From assembly GCA_963826005.1 (NCBI GenBank), contig CAWGVJ010000014.1, positions 14,017 through 78,016 of the forward strand: a stretch of DNA of 64,000 nt. Reading direction: 5' to 3'. The notes under the pieces are model-generated. The model was not told where the DNA came from and searched no databases. It was given only the letters and a program-made list of their open reading frames with translations. This document shows, piece after piece, positions 4,759-64,000 of the stretch. This DNA is from an uncultured Solirubrobacterales bacterium (GTDB lineage: Bacteria > Actinomycetota > Thermoleophilia > Solirubrobacterales > JBBDJG01). How positions within the stretch are numbered: position 1 is the first letter of the stretch; every line of letters begins with the position of its first letter. Position numbers and translations under genes: made by a program.

Positions 4759-4928
4759 TGATTCCCTGCCCTCTCCCCACGGCCGGCCACCGGTCAGCCC
4801 GGCCTCATCGCGCCAATAAACACAAGCCTGTGACCCCTGTCAAGGCCCATCGCGACTATTTCGCCGCGATCGAGGGTACCTGTATCGCAAGGACACGGGA
4901 CCCTGACCCCCTGTACTGAGGTAGCCGA

Positions 4929-15532: not shown

Positions 15533-18053
<2,521 letters not shown>

Positions 18054-18057
<4 letters not shown>

Positions 18058-37214: not shown

Positions 37215-37325
37215 AGTTCGCCCCTTTCGAGCACGACCACCGAGAGGGTCGTGCGGTCGAGTGTCAGGAAGAGAAGATACGCCCACTAGAATTCCGCACG
37301 CCGGTAGACCGTCGGGAGGCCAGCC

Positions 37326-42080: not shown

Positions 42081-42086
42081 TGGTCC

Positions 42087-49920: not shown

Positions 49921-49992
49921 GGGCGCGTAGCTCAGCGGGAGAGCGCTCGCTTCACACGCGAGAGGTCGCTGGTTCGATCCCAGCCGCGCCCA
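49921..49992 (+). tRNA. tRNA-Val (anticodon CAC)
   Basis: Hand-folded cloverleaf: acceptor GGGCGCG/CGCGCCC, D arm GCTC-AGCGGGA-GAGC, anticodon arm CTCGC-TTCACAC-GCGAG, variable AGGTC, T arm GCTGG-TTCGATC-CCAGC, discriminator A. CCA is not encoded. Confidence 0.95.
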
Positions 49993-50006
49993 TCGACGAC
50001 GATGCC

Positions 50007-50435
50007 TCAGGAGGAGTCGGCGTGAGCGTCTTGCTCCGACAGCCCCACGGCTTCGAGGGCTTCCGAGCGCTCGCGGAACACCGCGACCCGAACGATCTTG
50101 TTCTGCCGAATCCAGACCGCGTTGTAGGAACGCCTCGTTACCTCGACTCCGCTGCGCCGACCGACCCCTCGGTGATCGACAGCCGCGACCACCGCCTCAT
50201 TGACCGGGATCAGCTCGACAACGTCGAGTCGATAGTTCGGAGCAAAGGTGCGAAACCAGCTTCCGAACCACTCGCCTACGGCGTCGGCTCCACGGTAGAC
50301 GCCTGGATCGACTGCCACGTCCTCCGACACGACGAGCTCGATGCTCGGGTCGAAACTTTGCATGGCCACGTTGAATCTCCGAGCGTTGGTGTTCTCGAAA
50401 TGCTCGCGCACGATCTCCACGTTCTCCTGCGACAT
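50007..50435 (-). CDS. NTF2/SnoaL-like cassette A (intact, 142 aa)
   Basis: MSQENVEIVREHFENTNARRF...RSEALEAVGLSEQDAHADSS. The stop lies 14 nt after the tRNA-Val 3' end. Confidence 0.8.
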   Translation of the reverse strand: MSQENVEIVREHFENTNARRFNVAMQSFDPSIELVVSEDVAVDPGVYRGADAVGEWFGSWFRTFAPNYRLDVVELIPVNEAVVAAVDHRGVGRRSGVEVTRRSYNAVWIRQNKIVRVAVFRERSEALEAVGLSEQDAHADSS

Positions 50436-50438
50436 CGC

Positions 50439-50834
50439 CTACTCCAAGAGCCCGAGGGCTTCGAGGGCTTCGTCCCTGGCCCAGAAGGCCTGACGCCTCG
50501 TGATTAGGCCCTCCGCGAACCCGACCACCCACCAGTCGCGGAGCTCGGCGGGCAAGCCGCTGCCTTTACCGCGCCCGGTGCGAACGAATGCAACCAGGAG
50601 CCGGTCATCACCCAAGTCCGTTATCTCCCCGACCTCGATGCGGATGTCCTCGATGACGTCGAATAACTCCGCGACCCACTCGCGCACCTCCGCCCGTCCG
50701 CGGTACACATCTCTAAACCCGGGGAAGGGGGAGCTGCTCCGGGACTCCCATACGACGTCAGGGCTGAGAAAAGCCACGAAGGCATCGAAGTCGCGGCGGT
50801 TGACAGCGTCGGTCGCTTCACGTAGTAGCTCCAC
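50439..50834 (-). CDS. NTF2/SnoaL-like cassette B (131 aa from GTG; canonical ATG replaced by ATT)
   Basis: In-frame ISEQN-VELLREATDAVNRRDFDAF...RDEALEALGLLE. The TAG stop is 3 nt before the cassette A ATG (J2). Confidence 0.7.
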   Translation of the reverse strand: MELLREATDAVNRRDFDAFVAFLSPDVVWESRSSSPFPGFRDVYRGRAEVREWVAELFDVIEDIRIEVGEITDLGDDRLLVAFVRTGRGKGSGLPAELRDWWVVGFAEGLITRRQAFWARDEALEALGLLE

Positions 50835-50928
50835 GTTTTGCTCAGAAATACGCCTTCACCCGGCCCTCAAATGGCTATTTCATGGGTCGCGTGTGACGAC
50901 GCCGTCGTCATGGTCTCTCCTGCGACAT
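50835..50928 (-). pseudogene. truncated cassette remnant (start module only)
   Basis: The J1 start half gives ATG at 50928 and MSQERP-stop, then about 70 nt of unrelated filler before cassette B. Confidence 0.6.
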
Positions 50929-50951
50929 CGCCCGCGCAGTATCCCGCAGGC

Positions 50952-51367
50952 TCAGGAGTCGGCGTGAGCGTCTTGCTCCGACAGTCCCACGGCTTCGAGG
51001 GCTTCGTTGTGTTCGCGAAAGATTCGGATGCGCCTGATCTTGCCCTCGGCAAAGTCATAGACATTTGCGCTATGCAGGTCAACGGCCAGGCCGCTGGTTC
51101 GCCCAGTCGCGGTGGCGTGCAGAAAGGCGAGGACTTGGGTCCCGCCATCGCCTCCAAGCGTTTGATCTCGACTCGGAAGTCGAGAGCGAGTCCTCAACGT
51201 CGCCCAGAACCGCCGAATAGCGCCCTGTCCGTGGTACAGGCCCCCGATCGCCGCCCACGGCGTTCGCAACTCGAAGTCTCGGTGCAGCAGCTGAGATAGC
51301 GGTCGAGGTCCCGCTCATTGAGCGCCGCAACAGCTCGCTCCACAAGTTCCACGTTCTCTTGCGACAT
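50952..51367 (-). pseudogene. NTF2/SnoaL-like cassette D, frame-disrupted
   Basis: MSQENVELVERAVAALNERDLDRYLSCCTE, then a shift to ..TPWAAIGGLYHGQGAIRRFW...VYDFAEGKIRRIRIFREHNEALEAVGLSEQDAHADS. 416 nt. Confidence 0.65.
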
Positions 51368-51390
51368 CGCCCGCGCAGTATCCCGCAGCG

Positions 51391-51812
51391 TCAGGAGTCG
51401 GCGTGAGCGTCTTGCTCGGACAGCCCCACGGCTTCGAGGGCCTCGGCCCTGCTTGTGAATCCCTGGCCCCGCATGAGCCTGCCGTCTCGCACCGCAACTA
51501 CGTGCCAGATGTGCCAGCTGACATCCACGCCGCTCTGCTTGCCACGGCCCCGCATGGTCACAGAGACGAGCAGCTGATCGCCCGCCTCGATGATCTCGTG
51601 GACCTCGATGTGGGGCTCGTCGAACTCTTCCCTGAACCAGCTTAGGAACCGCCTGAGTCCCTCATGCCCCCGTACGCACCCGCGAAGCCGGGGATCGTCC
51701 CCGTTGAGAGGTACTCGGCATCTGGAGCGATGTCCGCAACCACGGCGTCGAGATCGCCCCGGTTGAACGCCTCGTAGACTCGCTGCACCACCTCCACGTT
51801 CTCCTGCGACAT
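51391..51812 (-). pseudogene. NTF2/SnoaL-like cassette E, one frame change near 51670
   Basis: MSQENVEVVQRVYEAFNRGDLDAVVADIAPDAEY..., then ...FLSWFREEFDEPHIEVHEIIEAGDQLLVSVTMRGRGKQSG...AEALEAVGLSEQDAHADS. 422 nt. Confidence 0.65.
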
Positions 51813-51816
51813 CGCC

Positions 51817-52218
51817 TTACTCCGACAGCCCGGCGGCTTCCAGGGTCTCTTCGCGGGTTGCGAAGGACTGGATGCGCACGAACTTGCTCGCGCGAAGCGT
51901 GTACAAGACGGCCCAACGCCGCTCAAACGGCGCACCGCTTCCCCTCCCGTGTCCTCGCTCGTGATGGACGACGAGGACCCGATCCTCACCGGCGTCGACG
52001 ATCTCGATCGGCTCCAGCGAGTACTCGTCCCAAGTGCCCCAGTAATCGCGGTAGTAGTCGACCACGGCGCTCTTGCCATGCATGTGCTCGGGGTGGTCGG
52101 GGAAGAGCGAGGACAGCGAAGCGTCGAGCTCGACCTCCTCGTCGAGCACATCGAAGAACCCGCTCGGATCGCCCGATCGGTAGATGCTCCGCACGATCTC
52201 CACGTTCTCCTGCGACAT
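51817..52218 (-). CDS. NTF2/SnoaL-like cassette F (intact, 133 aa)
   Basis: MSQENVEIVRSIYRSGDPSGFFDVL...TREETLEAAGLSE. TAA, then a 4-nt spacer before the cassette E ATG. Confidence 0.8.
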   Translation of the reverse strand: MSQENVEIVRSIYRSGDPSGFFDVLDEEVELDASLSSLFPDHPEHMHGKSAVVDYYRDYWGTWDEYSLEPIEIVDAGEDRVLVVHHERGHGRGSGAPFERRWAVLYTLRASKFVRIQSFATREETLEAAGLSE

Positions 52219-52241
52219 CGCCCGCGCAGTATCCCGCAGGC

Positions 52242-52657
52242 TCAGGAGTCGGCGTGAGCGTCTTGCTCCGACAGCCCCACGGCTTCGAGGGCCTCGTCGC
52301 TGGTCGTTGTAGAGTCGATCCGCGTGACCTTGCCGTCTCGGATGGTCGAGACCATGGCGTCCCGGCGTTCGACGCTAACGCCGCTACCGCGTCCGATGGC
52401 CCGCATGAGAAAGAGCGAGACCACCTGATCGCCCGCGTCAACGAGGCGCTCCAACTTCATCGCATAGCTCCCGAACGTCTCGCCCCAGTTGGTCAGCCAC
52501 TCCGTGTACCCGGCCAGACCGTGATAGCGTGCCCGCGTCCGGGATGTCGTGGTCGTAGACCTCGATCTCGCGGTCGAATGACGTCCCAGAGAGGCTCGCC
52601 GGTCTCGTCAAAGTGATCGTGGAATCGGCGCGCAATCTCGACGTTCTCCTGCGACAT
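52242..52657 (-). pseudogene. NTF2/SnoaL-like cassette G, at least 2 frame changes
   Basis: MSQENVEIARRFHDHFDETGEPLWDV.., FDREIEVYDHDIPDAGT.., MKLERLVDAGDQVVSLFLMRAIGRGSG...SDEALEAVGLSEQDAHADS. Confidence 0.65.
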
Positions 52658-52680
52658 CGCCCGCGCAGTATCCCGCAGGC

Positions 52681-53097
52681 TCAGGAGTCGGCGTGAGCGT
52701 CTTGCTCCGACAGCCCCACGGCTTCGAGGGCCTCGGCCCGCGTCTCGAAGGTGCGCCACCAGACGCACTTCCCGCGCCGCCACCGGCCCACGTACCAGAC
52801 CGTCTCGTCCAACGGCACGTCGCTACCCGCGCCGTGGCCGCGCAGGTGCAGAGTCGCCACCGTCAGGTCCCCAACGTCGCGGACTTCGCCAACCTCGATG
52901 GTGAAGTCGGGGATGGCGCTGAGCAGGTCGTTCCACCAGCGGCGGACTCCTTCGTGACCGTGATAGCTGCCCTCCATGCGAGCCGCCCGCGGGACGCCCT
53001 CCACGTCATCGTCCGTCAGCGCCAGACTGGCGTCGAGGTCGCGCCGGTTGAAGGCGTCGAAGGCTCGGTAAGTCAGTTCCACGTTCTCCTGCGACAT
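52681..53097 (-). CDS. NTF2/SnoaL-like cassette H (intact module; read through from cassette I)
   Basis: MSQENVELTYRAFDAFNRRDLDASLALTDDDV...MEGSYHGHEGVRRWW...RAEALEAVGLSEQDAHADS. Confidence 0.8.
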   Translation of the reverse strand: MSQENVELTYRAFDAFNRRDLDASLALTDDDVEGVPRAARMEGSYHGHEGVRRWWNDLLSAIPDFTIEVGEVRDVGDLTVATLHLRGHGAGSDVPLDETVWYVGRWRRGKCVWWRTFETRAEALEAVGLSEQDAHADS

Positions 53098-53505
53098 CGC
53101 CCGCTCCGACAGCCCCACGGCTTCGAGGGCCTCGGCTTTGTCGTTGTAGGTCGCTACCCGCACGGCCTTTCCGTCGCGGACGGTCCACACCTGGGTCAGT
53201 TGAGCCTCAACCTCGGCACCACTTCCCTTGCCGCGCGTGTGTACACGCAAGACGACGACAACGCGATCCCCACCTACTTCGATGAAGTCCTCAGGTTCCA
53301 TCCGCACGTATTCCCAGAGTCTCGAAGAATCCGCAAGGAGATTTCGGATGGCTGCACGGCCGTAATACGTTCCGGCGTAGGGGCCAATCGCAGCCGTGAT
53401 GTCGTATTCGGCGTCGGGATGGACATGTTCGAGGAGGGCGTCCAAGCCTGCGCGGCTGAACGCCTCAAGGGCCCGGCGCACAAACTCCACGTTCTCCTGC
53501 GACAT
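53098..53505 (-). CDS. NTF2/SnoaL-like cassette I (intact module lacking a stop, fused in frame to H)
   Basis: MSQENVEFVRRALEAFSRAGLDALLEHVHPDAEY...KAEALEAVGLSE-RA-MSQENVELT. The J2 TAG is replaced by CGG at 53101-53103. Confidence 0.75.
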
Positions 53506-53528
53506 CGCCCGCGCAGTATCCCGCAGGC

Positions 53529-53958
53529 TCAGGAGTCGGCGTGAGCGTCTTGCTCCGACAGCCCCACGGCTTCGAGCGCTGCCGCTCGGTCCTCTCCGAA
53601 GTACGTCCACTCGACGGGCTTGCCGTCTCGGAACGTCGTATACGTTCCAGACGTATGCCTCAACCTCGACGCCGCTCGCCTTCCCCCGACCGCCCGTCCG
53701 GATGAACGCCAGCACCTTGTCGCCTGCGTCGATCAGTTCCTTGGGTTCGCCAACGGGTGCGTCCCCCTTCGCACCAGCTCCATCTCGCGCTTCGAACCAG
53801 GCCCGCGCCTTGTCGCGACCACGCAGAAGCACCGGGTCATGAGCCGCCGCGAGAAGTCGAACGACGGCCTCGGGCGGGATCAGGTCCCAAATCGCCTCGT
53901 CCCCTTGGTCGGCCAACGCGTACATGCGCCGCACGACCTCCACGTTCTCCTGCGACAT
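53529..53958 (-). pseudogene. NTF2/SnoaL-like cassette J, frame change near 53640
   Basis: MSQENVEVVRRMYALADQGDEAIWDLIPPEAVV...ELIDAGDKVLAFIRTGGRGKASGVEVEAYVWNVY, then a shift to ..DRAAALEAVGLSEQDAHADS. Related to the cassette at 63356..63775. Confidence 0.65.
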
Positions 53959-54031
53959 CGCCCGCGCAGTATCCCGCAGGCTTCAGAAGTCGGCGTGAGC
54001 GTCTTGGGACCGCCCTCTAAGCCGTCGCGTC

Positions 54032-54217
54032 TCAATCGCCGTCATGGATGCTCCGAAAAGCAGCCCAGAGACCACACCTTCCAGCAGGCTGAAGGAATCG
54101 TCCCAAAGCACCACCTGGAGGAGTTGCGTAAGGCCTCCAAAGAGGACGGCGTAAGAGAAACAACAGCCAGGGGTGGTCCAACAGGTAGTCGCGCAGGTCC
54201 TTTCGCATCTGCGACAT
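54032..54217 (-). CDS. non-NTF2 61-aa ORF carrying the array start module (MSQ...)
   Basis: MSQMRKDLRDYLLDHPWLLFLLRRPLW.... Preceded by the J1 start half and followed by a degenerate J1 end half (..QDAHADF stop at 53983-53985). Locally lower GC. Coding status is uncertain. Confidence 0.35.
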   Translation of the reverse strand: MSQMRKDLRDYLLDHPWLLFLLRRPLWRPYATPPGGALGRFLQPAGRCGLWAAFRSIHDGD

Positions 54218-54415
54218 CGCCGCGCAGTATCCCGCAGGCTCAGGAGTCGGCGTGACCCGTCCGCTCGAGCCGATCCAGTCGACCCGTGAGGCCTTGCGTA
54301 TTGCGCTTCGGACCGCGTCTCAAGGTCACGAAGGCGGGCCGAATGTCCCGCAGTCTCGGTACGGCCAACGGTCCAGTCGGCTGCCCTAAAAGCACGTCGG
54401 AGGGAGGCCGACTGT

Positions 54416-54712
54416 CTACATGCTGCTCGGCGCCCTCGGTCCCTCTCTGCCCCTGATGACCCAGCGTGCCACGACGAGCACGATGATGACCCCGATGATC
54501 GCGCCGACGATGCCGCCCCAGTCGAACACGTTGGTGTCGCCGATACCGAGACCGACCGTGAAGATCAGGAAACCCATGAGCGCTCCGCCCAGCCCCACGA
54601 GTAGCGACACGCCCCACGATCGCGGGCCAGCCATGTGCTCGAACGGGTCACCAGGCATCAGCACCCTCCCGATCACTCCGGCCACAAAACCGACTAGCAG
54701 CGCTCCGATCAT
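54416..54712 (-). CDS. GlsB/YeaQ/YmgE-family (transglycosylase-associated) small membrane protein
   Basis: Start at ATG 54712 with GGAGGAGGGAG upstream. MIGALLVGFVAGVIGRVLMPG...GLGGALMGFLIF...GGIVGAIIGVIIVLVV. Confidence 0.75.
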   Translation of the reverse strand: MIGALLVGFVAGVIGRVLMPGDPFEHMAGPRSWGVSLLVGLGGALMGFLIFTVGLGIGDTNVFDWGGIVGAIIGVIIVLVVARWVIRGREGPRAPSSM

Positions 54713-54801
54713 TGCGTCTCCCTCCTCCTGCGCGGAGTCCAATCATCGCAGGGCGCCCGTCTCGGACCCAGCGGCGGGCGCGATCTTTCAGAGTCGCAGG
54801 C

Positions 54802-55220
54802 TCAGGAGTCGGCCTGAGCGTCCTGCTCCGACAGGCCTACGGATTCGAGAGCTTCGGCGTGATCTTGGAAGATCTCTTGGTAGAAGATCCTCCGCCTGCG
54901 CCCGTCACGACGTTCGTCATCTCCATGTTCGACTCGGGACCACGGCCTGCGCCGTGCCAGGCGTACCTGAGGACGACTCGGTCGGCAGCGTCAATGAAGT
55001 CGCCGATCGGATGAAGTGTGTCCGTCTCCCAGATCTCGCGGGTCTGCTCGAAGAAGCGCATTACGGCTTCCCGGCCTACGAGGGGCCCCGGTTCCGGCCA
55101 CATGCTGGGAGGCCGCAAGATGACCTCTTTTGGACGGTAAAACGCGCTGAAGGCCTCCATGTCTCCTGCGTTCCACGCAGCGTACGCGGCACGGACGATC
55201 TCCACGTTCTCCTGCGACAT
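54802..55220 (-). pseudogene. NTF2/SnoaL-like cassette K, frame change near 54890
   Basis: MSQENVEIVRAAYAAWNAGDMEAF...WPEPGPLVGREAVMRFFEQTREIWETDTL.... C-terminus ..IFQDHAEALESVGLSEQDAQADS lies in another frame. Confidence 0.65.
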
Positions 55221-55223
55221 CGC

Positions 55224-55617
55224 CTACTCCTGCAGCCCCACGGCTTCGAGGGCCGCGTCCCGGCTGTTGAAGTTGCGCCACCAGATGCCTTCCCGTCCCG
55301 CCACCTGTGCACCAGCCAAACCATGTCCTCGGTGGGGACGTCGCTACCGGCGCCATGGCCGCGAAGAATCACGGCTGCGACGTCAGGTCTCCAAGGTCGC
55401 GCACTTCGACGACCTCGCCCGTGTAGTCGGGGAAGACGTCGAACAGGCTTTTCCACCACCGGCGGATTCCGCCGTGGCCGTCGTAGTTGCCCTCCATGGC
55501 GGCAACCAGGGGGAAGGCCTGCACGTCATCGTCCATCAGCGCCAGAGAGGCGTCGAGGTCCTGCCGGTTGAAGGCGTCAGCGGCTCGGTAAACCAGCTCC
55601 ACGTTCTCCTGCGACAT
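55224..55617 (-). pseudogene. NTF2/SnoaL-like cassette L, 2 frame changes
   Basis: MSQENVELVYRAADAFNRQDLDASLALMDDDV...MEGNYDGHGGIRRWW..., AAVILRGHGAGSDVP.., ..RDAALEAVGLQE. Confidence 0.65.
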
Positions 55618-55620
55618 CGC

Positions 55621-56019
55621 CTACTCCGACAAGCCGACGGCCAGGAGGGCTTGATCAGGGTCTGGAACGCCCGCATGTAGACCATCCTTCCATGGCGGAA
55701 CTGGGCCACATAACCCGCCGCCGACTCGGTTTCGACGCCGCTGCCCTTGCCGCGGTAGCGCAGCCGCCAACGACAACCACGACATCGCCCGCCGCGAGAA
55801 CGTCATCGATGTCGGTTCGCAGAAACTCCCACGCATCGCTGAGGTCGTTCACGTATCGCCTCAGCCCGTCGTGGCCGTGGTAGACGCCCCCTTCGCCAAG
55901 TTGAGCCAAGAACGAATGCCACTCGATTTCCGGATCGGTCAGCTCGATCAGACGCGCGACGTCCTGTCGGGCGACAGCATCTATGACGGCCGACGCAGCT
56001 CCACGTTCTCCTGCGACAT
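55621..56019 (-). pseudogene. NTF2/SnoaL-like cassette M, several compensating frame changes
   Basis: MSQENVE, shift, AASAVIDAVARQDVARLIELTDPEIEWHS...YHGHDGLRRYV...VVVVG, shift, ..GKGSGVETES.., shift, ..DQALLAVGLSE. Confidence 0.6.
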
Positions 56020-56022
56020 CGC

Positions 56023-56417
56023 CTACTCCGACAGGCCGACGGCTTCGAGGGCTTCCGGTGATCCCAGAAGAACTCAACCAGGATGGTCTTGCCCTTGCGC
56101 ACCGTAATGACGGAGGTGACCTCGATCTTCAGGTCAGGACCACTGCCTTCGGCACGCCAGACGAACCTCGTGACGACTCGGTCACCCAGGTCGAGGAGTT
56201 CGATCAGTTCAAGGGTGTCGGCGTCGAAGGGCTCACGTTGCTGCTCCCATAGGCGCATGACTGCATCTCGGCCCGTGAAAGGCTCGGATCCTTCCGGCCA
56301 GCCATCCGCATACCGCACGACGACGTGCGGGTCGAACGAGTCGCCGAACGCGCCCATGTCTCCGGCGTTCCAAGCCTCGAAGGCGGCCCGCACGATCTCC
56401 ACGTTCTCCTGCGACAT
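56023..56417 (-). pseudogene. NTF2/SnoaL-like cassette N, one frame change near 56060
   Basis: MSQENVEIVRAAFEAWNAGDMGAF...VITVRKGKTILVEFFWDH, then a shift to ..EALEAVGLSE. Confidence 0.7.
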
Positions 56418-56420
56418 CGC

Positions 56421-56818
56421 CTACTCCGAGAGGCGGGCGGCTTTGAGGGCTTCGTCACGGTCGCGGAAGAAGTCCACGCGTACGGCCCTGCCGTGGCGGA
56501 GCGTGACGACCTGGTAGAGGAAGTCCTCTCCTCCGGCCCGCTGGCCCTTCCGCTGCCCCGGAGGTGCATGAGGGTGAACAGTCTGTCGCCGCCGTCGATG
56601 AGCTCTTCGGGGTCGATCCGAAAATCACCAAATACGTCGCGAAGCATCCGCCAGAACGTTTTCACGCCCTCATGGCCGTGATGGATCTCGCCATCGGGTG
56701 CAACGCGCGTCAGGTCGAACACCACATCCGGGTCCATCGTTGCGAGGGCGGCATCCCAGTCGCCTCGGTTATAGGCCGCTTGAGCACGCATGAGCGTTGC
56801 CACGTTCTCCTGCGACAT
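56421..56818 (-). pseudogene. NTF2/SnoaL-like cassette O, frame change near 56540
   Basis: MSQENVATLMRAQAAYNRGDWDAALATMDPDVVFD...LMHLRGSGRASG, shift, ..VVTLRHGRAVRVDFFRDRDEALKAARLSE. Confidence 0.65.
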
Positions 56819-56841
56819 CGCCCGCCCAGTATCCCGGAGGC

Positions 56842-57271
56842 TCAAGAGTGGGTGCGAGCGTCCTGCTCCGACAGGCCGAGTGTTCCGAGGGCTTCGGCGT
56901 GATCCCGGATGACCTCCACGCCGACGATCTTGCCCTTGCGCACGGTAAGGACGTGCGTAGGACCGAATGTCTCGACTCCGGGCCACGGCCTGCGGCCCGC
57001 CAGACGTGACCGCACCGCAACGCGGTCGCCAGGCGTCGATGAAGTCGCTGGATTCAGTTCCAGGGTGTCGGCGTCCCAGGTGTCGCGGAGTTGTTTGACC
57101 TGGCGCATGACCGCGTCCCGACCCATCGAAGCTCGCGGCCGCTGCTCCGGCCAGATCGTCCGGCATCCGCACGACGACGTGGGGTCGTACAGCTCACAGA
57201 GGGCGTCCATGTCCCCTGCGTTCCACGCCTCGAAGGCGGCTCGCACGACTCTCCACGTTCTCCTGCGACAT
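56842..57271 (-). pseudogene. NTF2/SnoaL-like cassette P, several frame changes
   Basis: MSQENVE, shift, RAAFEAWNAGDMDALCELYDP...GRDAVMRQVKQLRDTWDADTLE...LTVRKGKIVGVEVIRDHAEALGTLGLSEQDARTHS (variant J1). Confidence 0.6.
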
Positions 57272-57294
57272 CGCCCGCGCAGTATCCCGCAGGC

Positions 57295-57743
57295 TCAGGG
57301 GTCGGCGTGAGCGTCTTGCTCCGGCAGCCCCACGGCTTCGAGGGCCTCATCCGGGTCCCGAAACGACCGGAAGTGAATGATTTTCCCATCTCGGAACGTC
57401 CAGACGTAAGCGACCGGCCCCTCCAACTCGATGCCGGTGTACCGCGCCTTCGATCGCGTTCGGTGGACGGAGACGAGGCGATCACCCTCGCCAACGATTT
57501 GCTCCAACTCGACCAGCAGCCACTCCGAGCCCTCGACCCAGCGTTTCGCTGCCCGAGCGACACCCTCATGGCCGCGATACGACTCGCCAATGTGGTCCGG
57601 CAAAGTCGTGTCCTCGTAAACGACATCGGGGTCCAGGAAGGACATATCGATGATCGATCCCTGTTGCCATGCATCGAGCGTCCATGGCTCCCGAGGCCAC
57701 GTCTCCAAGAATGCTCGAAGGTTCTCCCCTTCTCCTGCGACAT
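57295..57743 (-). pseudogene. divergent NTF2/SnoaL-like cassette Q, one frame change near 57725
   Basis: MSQEKG, shift, ENLRAFLETWPREPWTLDAWQQGSIIDMSFLDPDVVYED...YRGHEGVARAAKRW...FRDPDEALEAVGLPEQDAHADP. First gene after R-element copy 1. Confidence 0.65.
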
Positions 57744-58010
57744 CGCCCGCGCAGTATCCCGCCTTGCGGTGCTCCGGCCGATGGCACCCACGTCCGTCCT
57801 ATTGCCGACCGGACTCGGTTTTGGGCACTGGCGGCTTCAGTGCCCATATCCGCATACATCCAGCCGTATCCGGCCCCATTTCGGTCGGGCGGCGCGGATC
57901 GTTCCGTGCCTCAGGTTCGCGGTGTAGAGCGGGAAAACGGCGGCTTCGTCCCTTCCCGGTCGTCGCGCTTCACACGCGAGAGGTCGCTGGTTGGATCCCA
58001 GCCGCGCCCA
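57744..58010 (+). repeat. R element copy 1 ending in a direct repeat of the tRNA-Val 3' part
   Basis: 57958..58010 is ggtcgtcgcgcttcacacgcgagaggtcgctggttGgatcccagccgcgccca. The last 45 nt equal tRNA positions 49948..49992 with one mismatch. The preceding degenerate D-arm-like gtagagcgggaaaac cannot form a cloverleaf. Hairpin GGGCACTG-gcggctt-CAGTGCCC at 57823..57845. Confidence 0.85.
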
Positions 58011-58056
58011 TCGAAGAAACGCCTGCGAGGCGTCCGTCTCCGATGCAGGACCGTTC

Positions 58057-58161
58057 TCAGCCGACCCTCGTCGGCGGGAGCGTTTGGGCATCAGCCCCGA
58101 CTGCTCGGCTAGAGATGCGGCCTGAAGGCGGCTGCTGGTAGGCCACGTTCTGCTGCGACAT
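58057..58161 (-). pseudogene. truncated cassette remnant abutting tRNA repeat 1
   Basis: MSQQNVAYQQPPSGRISSRAVGADAQTLPPTRVG stop. Only the start module is family-like. Confidence 0.5.
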
Positions 58162-58596
58162 CGCCTGCTCCGAGAGGCCCGCGGCTTCAAGGGCCTCGCG
58201 CGTGTCGAGATAGTGCCGTTGATCGATGATCTGGCCGTCCTTGAGCGTGTAGACGATAGTGAACTGAAGGTCGACAGAAGCACGGCTCCCCTTGCCTCTC
58301 GCGGACTGACGCACGACTGCGACGACACGGTCATCGCCAGCGTCAATGATCTTCTCGAGCCCGATTCTCCATTCCACGAAATCCTCGAGCCAGGCGCGAA
58401 GGAACTCGGCGAAATCCTTCTCGGCCAACGTAGGTCTTGTAGGGCGGATGCTTCACGCGCGGGCGAGGGTGGACGCGCAGGCATCGAGGCCCTGGTCGAA
58501 GACGGCGTCGGAGGCAATGGCCGGATCGCCCTGGTCAATGCCTTCCGTGAACAGGTCCCAGGCTCGCCGCACGATCTCCACGTTCTCCTGCGACAT
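58162..58596 (-). pseudogene. NTF2/SnoaL-like cassette S, 2 compensating frame changes and no stop (TAG replaced by CAG)
   Basis: MSQENVEIVRRAWDLFTEGIDQGDPAIASDAVF.., ..VKHPPYKTYVGREGF.., AEFLRAWLEDFVEWRIGLEKIIDAGDDRVVAVV...TREALEAAGLSE-QA-MSQQNV. Confidence 0.6.
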
Positions 58597-58599
58597 CGC

Positions 58600-59058
58600 C
58601 TACTCCGACAGCCCGACGGCTTCGAGGGCCTCGGCGCGTTCCAGATAGTCGTCCAATCGGATGATCAGGCCGTCCTCCACGGTGACGATCGTGAAGATCG
58701 TTGCGTTGACTTCGATGTCGCTTGTCTTTCCCTTCATCGCCAGTCGCAGCACCGCGAGAACTTGGCTGTCGCTGAGATCGGTGACCTCAAGGACGGTGAC
58801 CCGGGAGTCCTGGGCGGCATCCAGCATCTGATCGACACCACGCGCTGCGTCCTCGCAACCGCGGGCGGTGATACCGATAAGGGCCGACTTCCACTCGATA
58901 TTCGGATGCAAGTAGCGCATCGCGTCCGCGAACTCGGGCGAGACCTCACCCGCCCTCAGGCTGTCCGCAACGGAACGAGGGGCTTGCCAGTAGGCGGCAA
59001 AGGCTCGTTCCACTGCCTCGAAGTAGCGCCGCACGATCTCCACGTTCTCCTGCGACAT
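58600..59058 (-). CDS. NTF2/SnoaL-like cassette T (intact, 152 aa, long subfamily)
   Basis: MSQENVEIVRRYFEAVERAFAAYWQAPRS...LERAEALEAVGLSE. Confidence 0.8.
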   Translation of the reverse strand: MSQENVEIVRRYFEAVERAFAAYWQAPRSVADSLRAGEVSPEFADAMRYLHPNIEWKSALIGITARGCEDAARGVDQMLDAAQDSRVTVLEVTDLSDSQVLAVLRLAMKGKTSDIEVNATIFTIVTVEDGLIIRLDDYLERAEALEAVGLSE

Positions 59059-59103
59059 CGCCCGCGCAGTATCCCGCAGCCTCAGGAGTCAGTCGTGAGC
59101 GTC

Positions 59104-59502
59104 CTACTCCGACAGCCCCACGGCTTCGAGGGCATCCTCGCGCCAGGGAAGAGTTCGAAACGGACAGCTTGCCGTCCCGCATGGTCCGAAGATGTGCGAC
59201 ACGTATCTCGACGTCACGTGCCACTGCCCCTGGGTCGGGAATCGTACCCGCACGAATACCACGATCGATCGCCACGCAGGAGAACTGTTCTGGCTCTCAG
59301 GGACCACTTCGTCGAACGCGGCCAGTTCATCCTCAAGGGCGCGCCTGACTTCCTGGCCCCCGCGATACGTTCCGATCCTAGGGTCCCGATCCGGATCCGA
59401 TATTCGAAGTCCGGGTGCGTATCACGGAAGACGGCGTCACAGTCGTCCGCGACCGATGGCCTCGTACACCCCGCGGAGCGTCTCAACGTCTGCCTGCGAC
59501 AT
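59104..59502 (-). pseudogene. NTF2/SnoaL-like cassette U, several frame changes
   Basis: MSQADVETLRGVYEAIGRG.., DAVFRDTHPDFEYRI.., ..VAIDRGIRAG.., ..REDALEAVGLSE followed by TAG inside an otherwise J1-type junction. Confidence 0.55.
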
Positions 59503-59525
59503 CGCCCGCGCAGTATCCCGCAGGC

Positions 59526-59944
59526 TCAGGAGTCGGCGTGAGCGTCTTGCTCGGACAGCCCCACGGCTTCGAGGGCTTCCGCGTGATCCCAGAAGAACTC
59601 CATGGTCGAAGATCTTGCCCTTGCGCACCGTGTAGACGCCCGTCATCTCCAAGTTCGACGTCAGGACCGTGGCCTGCGCCACGCCAGATGAACCTCACGG
59701 CAACTCGGTCGGCGCCGTCGATGAAGTCGCTGATCGGTTCCAGGGCGTCGGCGTCCCAGGTCTCGCGCAGTTGCTCCAACTGGCGCATGACCGCCTCCCG
59801 ACCCACGAACGGCCCCGGCTCCGGCCAACCCTCCGCGGCCCGCACGATGACGTCCGGGTCGTAGAGCTCGCGAAGGGCATCCATGTCCCCCGCGTTCCAC
59901 GCCTCGAAGGCGGCTCGCACGATCTCCACGTTCTCCTGCGACAT
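59526..59944 (-). pseudogene. NTF2/SnoaL-like cassette V, 2 frame changes near the C-terminus
   Basis: MSQENVEIVRAAFEAWNAGDMDALRELYDPDVIVRAAEGWPEPGPFVGREAVMRQLEQLRETWDADALE..., then ..LEMTGVYTVRKGKIF.., then ..FFWDHAEALEAVGLSEQDAHADS. Confidence 0.7.
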
Positions 59945-59947
59945 CGC

Positions 59948-60343
59948 CTACTCCGACAGCCCCACGGCTTCGAGGGCGAGCCGCTTCGACATGTAGCCGA
60001 CCGCGCGCGTGATGCGGCCACCTTTGACGGTCACCACCGATGCCCAGGGAGCATCGAATCGGATCCCGGTCTGCCGGAAATGACCGATGAAGCGCTGCAC
60101 GGTGAGGAAGTTCTCGCCGTCCACCGGGCTGATCTCCTCGACCCGCATCGCAAAATCGGAGAACGCCTCCTCCAGATCGCTCCACCAGCGCCGCAGGCCC
60201 TCGTGACCGTGATACGTCGCTTCGAGCGCCCAACCTTTGGCGTTCACGATCTCGAGGTCCGGAGCCCAGAGCGCCTCAGCGAATTCCCCGCGCTCGATTG
60301 CCTCTCCCCAGCGCCGGACTATCTCCACGTTCTCCTGCGACAT
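59948..60343 (-). CDS. NTF2/SnoaL-like cassette W (intact, 131 aa)
   Basis: MSQENVEIVRRWGEAIERGEFAEALWAPDLEIV...YHGHEGLRRWW...KRLALEAVGLSE. First gene after R-element copy 2. Confidence 0.8.
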   Translation of the reverse strand: MSQENVEIVRRWGEAIERGEFAEALWAPDLEIVNAKGWALEATYHGHEGLRRWWSDLEEAFSDFAMRVEEISPVDGENFLTVQRFIGHFRQTGIRFDAPWASVVTVKGGRITRAVGYMSKRLALEAVGLSE

Positions 60344-60607
60344 CGCCCGCGCAGTATCGCCGCCTAACGGTGCGCCTGCCTATGGACCGCGTCCGTCTAT
60401 TGCGAACCAGACTCGGTTTGGGCACTGGCGGCTTCCAGTGCCCATATCCGCATACATCCAGCCGTATCCGGCGGCATTTCTTCAAGCGGCGCGGTTCGTG
60501 TCCCGCGCCGCGTTCGGCAGCGCAAAGCGGGAAACGACGACTGTGCGCCTTTCGGGTCGTCGCGCTTCACACGCGAGAGGTCGCTGGTTCGATCCCAGCC
60601 GCGCCCA
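60344..60607 (+). repeat. R element copy 2 ending in a direct repeat of the tRNA-Val 3' part
   Basis: 60555..60607 ggtcgtcgcgcttcacacgcgagaggtcgctggttcgatcccagccgcgccca, with 45/45 identity to the tRNA 3' part. Hairpin GGGCACTGG-cggctt-CCAGTGCCC at 60420..60443. Confidence 0.85.
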
Positions 60608-60622
60608 TGTCGGGTCGCCTAT

Positions 60623-61980
60623 TTACGCCGGCAGGCGACGTTCATGCACTGCAGCGGGTCGCCATTGCCGAAGGCCCTGTTCCCGCCGCCGTCGAGCACG
60701 CCCGCGATCGCCTCGATGCCGAGATCGAAGTTCGAGCTAGCCCTGTTCGCCACCAGGGCGACCTTGTCGCTCCTCACGTCGATCCCGTCGTCACCGTTTC
60801 GATCCGTGCGGTTGCCGCGCAGCTCGGAGACCTGGATGTGCGTATCCGGATCCGATCATCTCCCGGCCGAAGTGGATGCCGTCCACGCCATTCTTAACCG
60901 AGCGGTTTCCGGCGATGACCATGCCGCCCTGCGTCCTCGTACAGGATCTCGATGAAGATCCCGTGTCCAGAGTTGCTGCGAAGAAGGTTCGATGCGACGG
61001 CGTTGCGGCGGCTCTCGCCGCTGATCACGATCCCGCCGAGACCGCCGTTCTCGACGATCCGGTTTCCGGCAATCCGGTTGTCCTCGCTCTCCCCCACCGT
61101 GATTCCGCCCGACCAGTTGATCGGATGTGGAGGCCGTCGGGGCATTGCGAGAAATGATGTTCCGCTCCACCCGGTTTCGTCTGCGCTCCCTCGCTCATGT
61201 CTATGCCGGTGGAGCCGTTGTCCCACACACGATTGCCCTCGATGGAATTCTCGGAGGCCCCGTCCACGAGGCTGATCCCGGCACCGCGATTCGCGAAGGA
61301 GCGATTTCCCCTGATCGACAGGTTTCTGGTGCTAAAGAGGAACAGGCCGATGCCGTTGCCGAACGCGACATTGTCCTCCAGTCGGTCTCCAGCGACACCG
61401 CCGGCAAGCTCGATCCCGAAGCCGGAGTTTCGGCCTATGACGTTCCCGGTGATCGTCGTGCGCCCCTGAGGCTCGTAGACCGCGATGCCGGCGCTGTTGT
61501 TGTCCAGCGCGCGGTTGCCCTCTATTCGGCCATTCGACATGAGAGAGGTCGACGATGCCGCCGAAGCCGCTGTTGTCGTGGAGCCGAAGTCGGAGCAACG
61601 AGTTGTGATCCGCGATGATGACCTGAACGCCGTGCGCGAACTCGCGCACGGTGCCGTCTCGGATGGTTACCCCGTCGTGCCCTGCCTCTTGGCCGACTGC
61701 AGCTGTCGAACCGACCGTTCCGAATGCCCGTGTCGCAGCCAAGACCAGGACGAGGATCGCCGTCGCCGTCGACGGTGTGACCGTTCAAATCGAGGGTGAC
61801 GTTGTCGGCCCCGATCACGAGGCCATCGCCGGGGCAGTCGACCAGGTCCGAGTCGAGCGTCGTGTCCTGCGTGATCACGTCGCCGCACTGGACGTGGTTC
61901 GCGAGCGCCTGGCTGCCGTTCGCGAGAAGCGCCGTCACCGTGAGCGCCGTTAGAAGGCCTGGCCAATTGAGTCTGGGCAT
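60623..61980 (-). pseudogene. secreted right-handed parallel beta-helix repeat protein (NosD/CASH-like), multiple frame changes
   Basis: SD GGAGGG plus ATG 61980. MPRLNWPGLLTALTVTALLANGSQALA signal. Repeated ..GN.I..N...GI.. units spread over ORFs 61522..61980, 61332..61742, 61025..61540 and 60894..61226. C-terminus NRASSNFDLGIEAIAGVLDGGGNRAFGNGDPLQCMNVACRRK, TAA at 60625-60623. Confidence 0.7.
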
Positions 61981-62039
61981 CCGTTCCCTCCGTTCGCGAT
62001 CCGACCCTACCGGCGCGGGTAGCGCTGCGGCAAGGGGTC

Positions 62040-62235
62040 AGGCCTTGGGCACTGGCGGCCGTCCGGTGCCCATATCCGCGTAGATCCAGCCGTATCCGGC
62101 ACCATTTCGGTGGGGCGGCCCGGATCGTCCATTGCGTCAGGTTCGCGGCGTAAAGCGGGAAACGGCGACTTCGGGCCTCGTAGGTCGTCGCGCTTCACAC
62201 GCGAGAGGTCGCTGGTTCGATCCCAGCCGCGCCCA
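62040..62235 (+). repeat. R element copy 3 ending in a direct repeat of the tRNA-Val 3' part
   Basis: 62183..62235 has 45/45 identity. It is followed by tcgacgacgatgcctcaggaggagtcggcgtgagcg, the same string that follows the genuine tRNA at 49993. Hairpin GGGCACTGG-cggccgt-CCGGTGCCC at 62047..62071. Confidence 0.85.
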
Positions 62236-62249
62236 TCGACGACGATGCC

Positions 62250-62669
62250 TCAGGAGGAGTCGGCGTGAGCGCCTTGCTCCGACAGCCCCAGAGTTTCGAG
62301 CGCCTCCGTGTGGTCCCAGAAGAACTCCAGGTAGCGGATCTTGCTTTTGCGCACCGTAAACACCGCTGTCATCTCCATGTTCGCCTCAGGGCCATGGCCA
62401 ACCCCACGCCAAACCATCCTCACCACTACCCGGTCGCCGGCGTGGATGAAGCTGATCGCTTCCACGGCGTCGGCATCGAAGGCCTCCCGCTGCCGCTCGA
62501 ACTGGCGCATGACCGCCTCTCGACCTATCAAGGGCCCCGGCTCTGGCCAACCTTCCAAGTCGGTCAGGGTCATGGCGTTCGGGTCGTACAGCTCACGAAG
62601 AGCATCCGTGTCTCCGCTATTCCACGCCTCGTAGGAGGCTCGCACGATCTCCACGTTCTCCTGCGACAT
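62250..62669 (-). CDS. NTF2/SnoaL-like cassette X (intact, 139 aa)
   Basis: MSQENVEIVRASYEAWNSGDTDALRELYDPNAM...WPEPGPLIGREAVMRQFERQREAFDADAVE...FFWDHTEALETLGLSEQGAHADSS. Confidence 0.8.
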   Translation of the reverse strand: MSQENVEIVRASYEAWNSGDTDALRELYDPNAMTLTDLEGWPEPGPLIGREAVMRQFERQREAFDADAVEAISFIHAGDRVVVRMVWRGVGHGPEANMEMTAVFTVRKSKIRYLEFFWDHTEALETLGLSEQGAHADSS

Positions 62670-62672
62670 CGC

Positions 62673-63131
62673 CTACTCCGACAGCCCCACGGCTTCGAGG
62701 GCGTCTCGCCGGTCGAGGTAGTCGTGGATTCGCCACACCAATCCATCGCGCAGGGTCACCACAGTCGACATCCGCGCGCTGACCTCGATTCCGCTGCCCT
62801 TGCCCTTGAGAGCACCATCGACCACGGCGATGACTTGATCGTCATCGCCAGCGATCAGTTCGGCGATCGTCAGGACGTAGCTCTCGGCCGCTTCCAGGAA
62901 CTCATCCCAGGCTTGCGCCACGCCGAGATAGCCTCGGTAGGTCTTGGTCGAAAAGGCAGGCGTCCATTCGAGTTCGGGGTGCACATAGGTCATCAGATCC
63001 TCGGCCTCTGGCGGAAGCGTGCCTGCCTGGAACGTGGCGGCATAGGAGTAGGGCTTCTTCCAGTAGGCCTCCCCGACTCGGGCAGAGGCGTCGAAGAAGC
63101 GCTTCACGATCTCCACGTTCTCCTGCGACAT
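62673..63131 (-). CDS. NTF2/SnoaL-like cassette Y (intact, 152 aa, long subfamily)
   Basis: Start at ATG 63131 within ORF 62673..63218. MSQENVEIVKRFFDASARVGEAYWKKPYS...LDRRDALEAVGLSE. First gene after R-element copy 4. Confidence 0.8.
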   Translation of the reverse strand: MSQENVEIVKRFFDASARVGEAYWKKPYSYAATFQAGTLPPEAEDLMTYVHPELEWTPAFSTKTYRGYLGVAQAWDEFLEAAESYVLTIAELIAGDDDQVIAVVDGALKGKGSGIEVSARMSTVVTLRDGLVWRIHDYLDRRDALEAVGLSE

Positions 63132-63349
63132 CGCCCGCGCAGTATCCCGCCTATCGGTGCGCCTGCCGATGGCGCCCGCGTCCGTCCTGTTCCGGGACGC
63201 AGCCTTATCCAGCCCCATTTCGGTCGGGCGGCCCGGATGCCTAATTGCGCCGCAGTGCCCGGTGCCAAGCCGGAAACGGTGATTTCGTGCCTTTCGGGTC
63301 GTCGCGCTTCACACGCGAGAGGTCGCTGGTTCGATCCCAGCCGCGCCCA
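63132..63349 (+). repeat. R element copy 4 (hairpin segment missing) ending in a direct repeat of the tRNA-Val 3' part
   Basis: 63297..63349 has 45/45 identity. The upstream part shares ccatttcggtcgggcggcccggat and ..ccggaaacggtgatttcgtgcctttcgggtcgtc with the other copies. Confidence 0.8.
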
Positions 63350-63355
63350 CCTCGG

Positions 63356-63775
63356 TCAGCGACCGTCGTCTGACTTCTTCAACCCGGCAGCTTCCAGGGC
63401 CGCCGTTCGATCATCCCCGAAGTACTCCTGTGCGATGGGCTTTCCATTACGGAATGTCCACACGTGCGCGACATGGGCCTCGACTTGGGCCCCACTCTCT
63501 TTGCCCTTGCCGCTTGTCCTCATGAACGCGACCACTTTGTCGTCTGCGTCGATCAGCTCTTCGGGTTCCCAGCGGTTCGTCCCCTCCTCCCATGCCTCAC
63601 GCCCACTGTTGATGTAGGCACGCACCTGGTCACGACCGCGCACCACTGTCGGCTCTATCTGGCGGCGCGAGGCGTCCATGACGAATTCCGGCGTGACTAG
63701 GTCCCAAACTGTTTCGTCCCCGCGATCAATTAAGGCGTAGACACGCCGCACGATCTCCACGTTCTCCTGCGACAT
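63356..63775 (-). CDS. NTF2/SnoaL-like cassette AA (intact, 139 aa)
   Basis: MSQENVEIVRRVYALIDRGDETVWDLVTPEFVMD...VWTFRNGKPIAQEYFGDDRTAALEAAGLKKSDDGR. The stop lies 6 nt after tRNA repeat 4. Confidence 0.8.
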   Translation of the reverse strand: MSQENVEIVRRVYALIDRGDETVWDLVTPEFVMDASRRQIEPTVVRGRDQVRAYINSGREAWEEGTNRWEPEELIDADDKVVAFMRTSGKGKESGAQVEAHVAHVWTFRNGKPIAQEYFGDDRTAALEAAGLKKSDDGR

Positions 63776-63778
63776 CGC

Positions 63779-64000
63779 CTACTCCGACAGCCCCACGGCT
63801 TCGAGGGCTTCGGCCCGCGTGTCGGAAGGTGCGCCACCAGACGCACTTCCCGCGCCGCCACCGGGACGTTCCACGGGGATCGTCCTCTGCAAGGGATGTC
63901 GCTACCCGCGCCGTGGCCGCGTTGGCGCAGGGCGCGAGCGTCGATGTCTCCGAAGGTCCTGCACTCTCGACGACCTCGACGGTGAAGTCGGGAAAGATTT
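63779..64000 (-). pseudogene. NTF2/SnoaL-like cassette AB, C-terminal part only (window end), with indels relative to cassette H
   Basis: Ends ..AEALEAVGLSE TAG (63781-63779), 3 nt before the cassette AA ATG. The nucleotide sequence is alignable to 52720..52920 with gaps. Confidence 0.55.

Follow-up and report, generated by a model that had tools for sequence, protein, structure and literature searches.

Probable attachment sites derived from tRNA-Val, each with a conserved arm, divide an integrase-less cassette island in an uncultured Solirubrobacterales bacterium

Repeats of tRNA fragments that lack an integrase are usually written off as dead scars, and the Solirubrobacterales are an abundant but little-studied soil order. 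The closest described systems are tandem islands with CIMEs, for example the ICESt1/ICESt3-related elements of Streptococcus thermophilus and the ssrA islands of Dehalococcoides (PMC5704250, PMC3146451). Islander defines an island by a tyrosine integrase gene inside it and a minimum length of 2 kb; attP sites in the literature measure ~250 bp, anticodon-centred sites are the commonest class, and tandems of three or more are rare (4 of 3919 islands) (PMC4383910). In Prochlorococcus, partial tRNAs are read as older integrations that pushed earlier cargo inward (bioRxiv 10.1101/2020.12.28.424599). Here we describe an island 3' of tRNA-Val in a stretch of 64,000 nt from an uncultured Solirubrobacterales bacterium, the whole of which is called the window. 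It is compared with five further assemblies from the Solirubrobacterales and with three contigs from metagenomes; the assemblies compared are MAGs with indel errors.

The intact tRNA-Val(CAC) gene at 49921-49992 on the plus strand is the sole tRNA-Val call by ARAGORN and Rfam. Its upstream neighbours encode a galactose-oxidase-like protein, a DUF6220 protein, a membrane protein and dnaX. Synteny with five relatives breaks off at the tRNA 3' end, and the GC content drops from ~70% to 64% exactly at tRNA-Val. The 3' 45 nt of the gene (49948-49992), the putative att core, recur on the plus strand at 57966-58010 (copy 1, one mismatch in the T-loop), 60563-60607 (copy 2), 62191-62235 (copy 3) and 63305-63349 (copy 4), the last three with no mismatch to the tRNA. 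Five copies including the tRNA are thus present in the window, compared to 0 expected from 100 shuffles. In the alignment, the match begins 3 nt 5' of the anticodon loop and stops at the tRNA 3' end. At its left boundary the tRNA reads GAGCGCT before CGCTTCACAC, while the repeats read GGTCGTCG before CGCTTCACAC. The first-pass annotation had reported both the four same-orientation repeats and the abrupt stop of identity, and both hold; the 35-nt flank match that it saw between repeat 3 and the tRNA extends further, to 131 nt including the core at 92%. Displaced 3' tRNA fragments downstream of the intact gene in the same orientation are the pattern by which Islander recognises a tDNA island.

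SnoaL_2/NTF2-like cassettes fill the region 49993-64000 completely, together with two small membrane-protein ORFs, a single beta-helix gene and the R elements described below. All four cargoes lie on the minus strand. Segment 1 (50007-57791) holds ~18 SnoaL_2/NTF2-like cassettes, several of them frameshifted, and the two small non-NTF2 membrane-protein ORFs at ~54000-54840. Segment 2 (58011-60343) holds ~6 SnoaL_2 cassettes, some frameshifted. A secreted right-handed beta-helix (NosD-like) gene, frameshifted in the assembly, fills segment 3 (60619-61980), and two SnoaL_2 genes are found in segment 4 (62250-63131). More cassettes follow core copy 4 from 63356 to the window end. The segments between cores measure 1.1-8 kb. 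Each is bounded by two cores with an R arm on the distal one, as a CIME is bounded by attL and attR, and, again as in CIMEs, the segments lack integration, excision and transfer genes. Since none carries recombination genes, they are structurally cis-mobilizable (CIME-like). The cassettes are joined by 3-nt or ~70-nt direct-repeat modules, or by R and core. The ~70-nt module is conserved and flanks NTF2 genes and unrelated genes alike. In relatives, the cassettes carry other accessory genes too.

Element R, 150-210 nt long, stands 5' of all four repeats on the plus strand with a pairwise identity of 61-82%. The earlier proposal that these copies derive from one another holds. R1 (57763-57965) contains a palindrome at 57823-57845 and three ATCC repeats phased by 10 nt at 57848-57871. 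The same features are found in R2 (60363-60562; palindrome 60420-60443, ATCC repeats 60446-60469) and R3 (61981-62190; palindrome 62047-62071, ATCC repeats 62074-62097). Owing to a deletion of ~50 nt, R4 (63151-63304) has no palindrome and has kept only one of its three ATCC repeats. Most R copies have three ATC[CG] repeats at -118/-108/-98 from the core, and these 10-nt-spaced repeats would be of the arm type that the first-pass annotation had suggested looking for. The palindrome is conserved in sequence with a variable loop. The leftmost ~60 nt are common to R1, R2 and R4 and absent from R3. An nhmmer profile of R matches only beside cores, apart from one weak case in L016, where an R-like start is interrupted by an IS at the contig end. 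Between genomes, R is 63-87% identical, with core DNA at 77-84%; between the window and L009, no alignment was obtained for the non-coding DNA on the upstream side of the tRNA. Seven loci (L001-L007) were retrieved by a pattern that combined GTCGTCG with the 15 nt at the start of the core, so the conservation of those bases in L001-L007 is ascertainment. We therefore dropped GTCGTCG as an invariant motif; L018, which was found independently, has GGCCGTCG and GTGCCATCG. With its palindrome and phased ATCC repeats confined to the sides of cores, R looks as expected for a protein-binding arm, and these motifs are putative binding sites of an integrase or an accessory protein.

R together with the core could instead be a functional gene or regulator, either a small RNA resembling a tRNA or else an insulator or leader for cassette operons. 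R is kept across genera in constant orientation to the core, its hairpin is conserved, and core copy 3 gives a sub-threshold tRNA match without D-arm (25.9 bits, with the cut-off at 29). We nevertheless regard this reading as very improbable. The Rfam scan of R plus core returns no family besides tRNA, RNAalifold finds no covariation in R (covariation term +0.44), and changes in the hairpin stem break pairs without compensation; a structured RNA was rejected on these grounds. Furthermore, in the window R lies beside the start of a gene on the minus strand, whereas in L006, L007 and L016 it comes after a plus-strand gene, at the 3' end of the latter. Because the neighbouring gene end and strand differ in this way, R has no fixed link to a promoter role, and its candidacy as promoter or 5' leader of a minus-strand operon was rejected as well. 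Pure constraint would also not copy lineage-specific tRNA changes into the fragments, as seen below.

Assembly duplication, which the first-pass annotation had listed as an outcome that would overturn its reading, would mean that reads from the tRNA region had been collapsed or duplicated. The assembly does have indel errors, with the Lon and NrdJ genes broken over several frames. However, the R copies are 18-39% different, their neighbours differ, and homologous multi-copy arrangements exist in four other independent assemblies. The probability of such an artefact is negligible, and we reject it.

The flanks to the right of the cores connect the fragments with genuine tRNA genes of other genomes. 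In the window, the P'-type flank at 49993-50033 (plus strand), consisting of TCGACGACGATGCC and an NTF2 gene 3' end, recurs after core 3 at 62236-62276, and it is also present behind fragments in two other genomes. Three flank classes stand behind the genuine tRNA in one genome and behind a fragment in another, so that the same flank is joined to tRNA elsewhere, the sign, in the Islander definition, of an insertion at a site that is unoccupied in other genomes. The class starting with TCGACGACGATGCC includes the window tRNA, window copy 3, fragment A of MFD05674 and, with one substitution, one L018 fragment. The class TGTC.G.TCGCCTATTTACGC is shared by the L018 tRNA and window copy 2, and the class TTG.CAAA.CCGCC by the L011 tRNA and an L009 fragment. 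The idea that L011 shows the insertion site of the L009 cassette in a clean, empty state was set aside; just 15 nt past the core are in common, which is suggestive only. A conserved P' arm is present at some sites only.

Whole cassettes also differ in position. The unit of core, beta-helix gene, R3 and core (60563-62237) is colinear with L018 at 82.6% over 1710 nt. The left core of this cassette is the genuine tRNA in L018 and L009 and copy 2 in the window. R2 is 87% identical to its L018 orthologue (L018_d), with unlike right flanks. The order of the cassettes changes from genome to genome, the breakpoints falling exactly at the core, and exactly at the final core base the right flanks diverge into at least 12 different versions. 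The permuted arrangement spans genomes that are ~77-84% identical in core DNA and, judged by this, is old; it is therefore not the product of recent serial insertions of autonomous elements. Serial integration at tRNA-Val, as first proposed, thus stands as far as site-specific att cores are concerned, with the permuted order, shared flanks and tRNA-matched cores in its favour, but not as recent autonomous insertions.

These same comparisons bear on the idea that the locus is a dead scar. Here one ancient integration would have left a single R plus core, the integrase being silent ever since, and the later copies, the permutation and the core identity would come from RecA-dependent events, namely crossing-over among NTF2 paralogues and conversion among R, the cores and the tRNA. 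Several observations fit. Dozens of near-identical 20-70-nt junction sequences occur in the array, and R1, R2 and R4 have one left junction with an NTF2 gene start in common. The extended match between the tRNA and copy 3 points the same way, as do the mosaic R copies, two contigs of one bin differing only in a ~450-nt patch over R. In addition, cassettes are seen in both orientations in relatives, and the window and the related loci viewed yielded no integrase. Yet crossovers in NTF2 genes would duplicate both flanks, while the observed flanks part at the core end. The move of a distal cassette to the tRNA requires re-insertion at a 45-nt identity. The L009 tRNA and its fragment have four T-arm changes in common, yet nothing beyond the 45 nt is alike. 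R is also conserved like a functional sequence, and the R-less fragment of MFD05674 has decayed. We consider a purely dead scar unlikely. Judging from the mosaic R elements, homologous recombination among NTF2 repeats and R copies clearly also acts, and it could explain part of the pattern.

Among 14 distinct fragments compared, 12 belong to loci in which the resident tRNA is visible (the window, MFD05674, MFD05567 and L018). Ten of the 12 are exactly identical to the tRNA of their own genome; of the other two, one differs from it at a single position and the second has decayed. The decayed one is the only R-less fragment of MFD05674. The tRNA of MFD05567 carries four T-arm changes, and the same four are found in both fragments. 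The R elements of MFD05567 side with window-type R (~70-82%) and not with those of L006/L007 (53-63%), despite which its cores are identical to the L006/L007 cores. In the window, R pairs are 73% identical, compared with 3 differences in 270 positions for the cores (binomial P ~5e-32). R and orthologous flanks are only 60-90% alike, while the cores follow the resident tRNA. On these alignments, the cores evolve in concert with the resident tRNA.

A source of the recombinase was sought in and around the island. No integrase or excisionase is encoded in the array at 49993-64000 or among the 38 ORFs of window positions 1-49700. Because the array is fully tiled by cassettes and R, it has no room for such a gene, and the earlier remark that the segments encode neither is confirmed. 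The tyrosine integrase gene that Islander demands inside an island is thus absent from this one. No recombinase domain was found among the genes called in the 1.7-15 kb of sequence visible 3' of tRNA-Val in seven related loci. The sequences examined contained no excised circle and no empty site within one population, and the viral, phage and plasmid collections no intact parent element (phage, plasmid or ICE) carrying R. For a CIME proper, the parent would be an ICE or IME that has decayed, with accretion to a related functional element allowing mobilization in cis. The viral collection gave no R/core junction, no tRNA core and no relatives of the NTF2 cassettes; its three hairpin-pattern matches, in unrelated low-GC phages, were discarded as chance. 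BLAST of R plus core against phages and plasmids returned only a tRNA-like 45-nt match in a Methylobacterium replicon.

Taken together, the units of R plus 45 nt are probably att sites of a tRNA-Val-specific tyrosine-integrase system, and the segments integrase-less, CIME-like cassettes. Each unit of ~200-250 bp would be an attachment site with R as its P arm, and this size and the site class fit the published attP length and the commonest, anticodon-centred class (PMC4383910). Strand exchange in the anticodon loop would rebuild the tRNA from element DNA, and the displaced old 3' part would move downstream, now with R in front. Repeated integrations, combined with the excision of segments lying between cores and their re-insertion, would then produce the hypervariable island 3' of tRNA-Val, split into small cassettes with SnoaL/NTF2-like paralogues, the beta-helix protein and, in relatives, other accessory genes. 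The recombinase is presumably a tyrosine integrase, either lost by now or supplied in trans from another place in the genome, and the sites may still be active.

A bolder version, which we hold only tentatively and think unlikely, is a living cassette platform anchored at the tRNA. It would be integron-like but with tDNA-type sites: the tRNA-Val 3' end would serve as docking site, each cassette would bring its own ~250-bp R plus core, and a tyrosine integrase in trans would reorder the cassettes. Through excision, capture and reordering in trans, every core would stay identical to the tRNA. The ~70-nt junction module might provide for cassette exchange at a second level.

Side by side, the genomes show that these sites have been held identical to the resident tRNA, retain a conserved arm and mark the exact points at which small accessory cassettes have been reordered over a long evolutionary span. 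If an integrase acting in trans is found, the locus would represent a simple natural system in which cassettes are captured at a tRNA gene, and it would supply a new integrase/att pair. If there is none, it would be a well-documented case of homologous and site-specific processes shaping a paralogue-rich island.

The island resembles integron arrays in being one-ended, in its small, mostly single-function cassettes that have no recombinase of their own and each end in a recombination site, and in an order that varies between relatives. Unlike integrons, it has no intI beside the array and no attI with a Pc promoter at its head; by inspection, no attC-like palindromes close the cassettes, and the sites are tRNA-derived cores with an arm of ~200 nt. 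Prochlorococcus islands with tycheposons are likewise tRNA-anchored, hypervariable and scattered with partial tRNAs. Tycheposons differ in having their own tyrosine recombinase and replication module, and the available part of that preprint describes neither a conserved arm beside every partial tRNA nor fragment-tRNA identity (bioRxiv 10.1101/2020.12.28.424599). The sites are similar to the Islander 'A' class, with a downstream, co-oriented 3' tDNA fragment whose identity block spans the anticodon stem-loop and everything up to the 3' end, and with R taken as the arm they measure ~250 bp (PMC4383910); unlike Islander islands, the segments do not combine an integrase with a length of at least 2 kb. 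Compared to the published CIME examples, the segments are very small and most of their content belongs to one paralogous gene family, a parent ICE, IME or phage or an integrase was seen in none of the genomes examined here, and the permuted arrangement persists across diverged lineages. As in tandem tRNA/tmRNA islands with CIMEs, several direct repeats of the 3' part of the target gene stand downstream of its intact copy; between them, the segments keep att sites without integration or transfer genes, and growth would proceed, as in accreted islands, via repeated site-specific events at one target. The locus is a clear example of this known kind of island scar.

The only tRNA gene in the window is tRNA-Val(CAC) at 49921-49992 (+). 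Its last 45 nt (49948-49992, here called the core) recur four times downstream on the tRNA's own strand, while none is expected by chance. Copy 1 lies at 57966-58010 with one mismatch, copy 2 at 60563-60607, copy 3 at 62191-62235 and copy 4 at 63305-63349. Alignment of the four copies with the tRNA region shows that identity starts 3 nt 5' of the anticodon loop and ends at the discriminator base. Each copy is preceded by an element of ~150-210 nt (R1-R4 in order), and the four elements share 61-82% pairwise identity. The sequence 3' of copy 3 matches that 3' of the genuine tRNA at 92% over 131 nt, core included. The first-pass annotation had described the repeats, their abrupt 5' limit, the R elements and the copy 3 flank. 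Since all of these are confirmed, its description of the repeats is accurate.

Upstream, positions 1-49700 are ordinary chromosome, encoding an intein-containing class II ribonucleotide reductase, NrdR, Lon, malate, isocitrate and succinate dehydrogenases, asd/ask, recR, dnaX, SRP RNA and a galactose-oxidase-like protein. A recombinase domain is found in none of the 38 ORFs there. The GC content falls from ~70% to 64%, and the step coincides with the tRNA. Between 50007 and the end of the window, ~30 SnoaL_2/NTF2-like cassettes on the minus strand form an array, which also holds two small membrane-protein ORFs (~54000-54840) and a beta-helix (NosD-like) gene (60619-61980). The array offers no candidate gene for an integrase or excisionase, which bears out for the window the earlier statement that the segments lack both. 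Many cassettes appear frameshifted. Assembly indels are a likely cause, because the genes for Lon (15536-18078, -) and the reductase NrdJ (8126-13042, -) are also spread over three and two reading frames, respectively. Thus, apparent frameshifts do not necessarily make pseudogenes of the cassettes or of the beta-helix gene.

The cassettes are near-identical in DNA over their 5' 20 nt and 3' 27 nt, with far more diverged interiors. Cassettes with such ends occupy the window from 50007 to 64000 (-), as well as 2100-3900 of L002 and 1000-6400 of L018, two related loci. Neighbouring cassettes are joined either by a 3-nt spacer or by a module of ~70 nt, CTGTCGGAG-CAAGACGCTCACGCCGACTCC-TGA-GCCTGCGGGATACTGCGCGGGCG-ATGTCGCAGGAG. 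The module behaves like a cassette boundary because it also brackets unrelated genes, namely the two small membrane-protein genes at ~54000-54840 and, in L002, a 91-aa ORF without significant Pfam match. R and core are located exactly in its intergenic part. Outside the array, a lone SnoaL-like gene (8123-8533) follows the reductase and shares the MSQE.VEIVRR start of the array cassettes; more SnoaL_2 genes lie at 37308-37745 and 41421-42086. The reductase intein (within 8126-12091, -) comprises an intein splicing domain and LAGLIDADG. The gene at 2578-4839 (-), distant from the tRNA, encodes a large protein with internal repeats and no Pfam match; a homologue in the closest relative (L008, 12827-15238, +) lies directly downstream of tRNA-Val.

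A profile search finds R matches beside cores only. R4 has a deletion of ~50 nt, and R3 is without the leftmost part common to R1, R2 and R4. A palindrome is kept in R, with conserved sequence and a variable loop. Aligning the R copies and searching for arm-type repeated sites, as had been suggested, yields three ATC[CG] repeats, which start at -118, -108 and -98 relative to the core and are thus spaced by one helical turn. By its sequence R looks like a functional arm, and the ATCC repeats are putative integrase arm sites. In the contiguous locus of assembly MFD05674, the sole fragment (displaced tRNA-Val 3' part) that lost R has decayed; this is an argument from a single case, since L018 has an R-less core that remains perfect. 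Reading R and core as an RNA is a weak alternative: Rfam reports no family besides tRNA, RNAalifold finds no covariation, and substitutions in the hairpin stem disrupt pairs. A fixed promoter or leader role of R is ruled out because the neighbour of R is the start of a minus-strand gene in the window and the end of a plus-strand gene in L006, L007 and L016. In L016 (15590-15852), three phased AATC repeats accompany an R-like palindrome 3' of a plus-strand NTF2 gene, and this element is broken off at the contig end by an apparent IS transposase start (MPSRYPAEVRRQVVDL..). Two contigs of one MAG bin (L004 1-1535, L009 12801-14344) are 97-100% identical outside one ~450-nt patch of 52-84% identity, which spans the beta-helix gene 5' end and R and stops at the R/core boundary. 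This indicates that one R variant has recently been replaced by another.

Related loci were collected by several routes. An exact-pattern scan of a genome collection found R and core in two uncultured Solirubrobacterales MAGs, and a metagenome scan in three short contigs. Orthologous loci in seven assemblies were obtained with two anchor proteins, the galactose-oxidase-like one encoded upstream of the tRNA and the beta-helix one; for L009, L010 and L018 the route was an independent one, through proteins. For L001-L007, GTCGTCG and the core's first 15 nt were set by the search pattern, so only bases outside it, especially in the T-arm, are evidence. All assemblies are metagenomic, with indel errors; an artefactual origin of the repeats is a weak explanation. 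In all fetched orthologous loci, synteny with the window reaches the tRNA-Val 3' end and no further. L008, L011 and L012 carry a B12-binding/carbamoyltransferase gene pair on the far side of the variable region. The number of segments, which we had been advised to compare between strains, differs among the related loci: there is no tRNA-Val fragment in these three loci, one in MFD05567 (L009), two with R plus a decayed one without R in MFD05674 (L010, L003 and L002), and four in L018, three of them with R. The R-less core of L018 (6465-6535, -) is called a 71-nt tRNA-Val by ARAGORN; in the 5' half it bears no relation to the genuine tRNA, and it is probably a pseudo-tRNA from chance upstream pairing. 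Judged by eye, two small ORFs directly after the L005 fragment (403-920, -) resemble a DUF2442/DUF4160 pair and a 180-aa ORF after the L007 fragment is SRPBCC-like; these add to the small accessory cargo beside cores.

The cores vary with the resident tRNA. The MFD05567 tRNA has four T-arm differences, and both its fragments carry the same four. Its R elements group with the window type (~70-82%), away from those of L006/L007 (53-63%), even though MFD05567 and L006/L007 have identical cores. Orthologous alignments of the window with MFD05674 (77% over 509 nt) and L018 (82.6% over 1710 nt) both keep the core at 45/45. Window R pairs are 73% identical, while their cores differ at 3/270 compared positions (P ~5e-32). 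At the sequence level, the cores follow the host tRNA, not R.

Flanks were tabulated for every tRNA and for each of the 14 distinct fragments. Right flanks diverge from the first base 3' of the core onward, with at least 12 variants. Three right-flank classes (TCGACGACGATGCC..; TGTC.G.TCGCCTATTTACGC..; and TTG.CAAA.CCGCC.., with only 15 nt in common) each occur 3' of the genuine tRNA in one genome and 3' of a fragment in a different one. Window 60563-62237 (core, beta-helix gene, R3, core) is the segment colinear with L018. Copy 2 forms the left core of this cassette in the window, whereas in L018 and L009 the genuine tRNA takes that place. At the last site of the L018 array lies an orthologue of window R2 (87%), followed by a different right flank. 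Shifting the block ending in R2 and core from a distal site to the tRNA would interconvert the two orders. Homologous recombination certainly contributes to the locus: the NTF2 cassettes share near-identical 20-70-nt ends, R copies are mosaic, the L004/L009 pair differs only in its patch, and both cassette orientations are present in relatives. A purely homologous history, however, fits poorly with breakpoints that fall precisely where the core ends, with re-insertion adjoining the tRNA, and with the L009 fragment that co-varies with its tRNA though only 45 nt are common.

An origin of the core sites by site-specific recombination is well supported. The identity block, from anticodon stem-loop to 3' end, has the anatomy of the commonest class of tDNA att sites, with an attP of ~250 bp (PMC4383910). 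In the best-supported account, the recombining enzyme is presumably a tyrosine integrase. Strand exchange in the anticodon loop would join chromosomal tRNA-Val to an element site consisting of R and core, which regenerates the tRNA and leaves its former 3' part displaced, with R in front of it. Recombination repeated at the tRNA, and from one core to another, would build and reshuffle the array, with the recombination genes located outside the cassettes, and the integrase may still act in trans. That the array is an active integron-like cassette platform served by such a trans-acting enzyme seems doubtful.

Direct repeats of tRNA 3' parts in variable islands, with or without an integrase, are well known. 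Precedents include Islander tandems (PMC4383910), CIME accretion in streptococci and ssrA islands of Dehalococcoides (PMC5704250, PMC3146451), and partial tRNAs in Prochlorococcus islands (bioRxiv 10.1101/2020.12.28.424599). Islander islands require an internal integrase, which is absent from the window locus; this locus also has none of the features of integrons. We file it with the already known tRNA-fragment islands. Somewhat unusual are the very small cassettes, the full arm kept at nearly every site, the strict core identity with the resident tRNA, and the persistence of the system, permuted, across lineages with only ~77-84% core identity.
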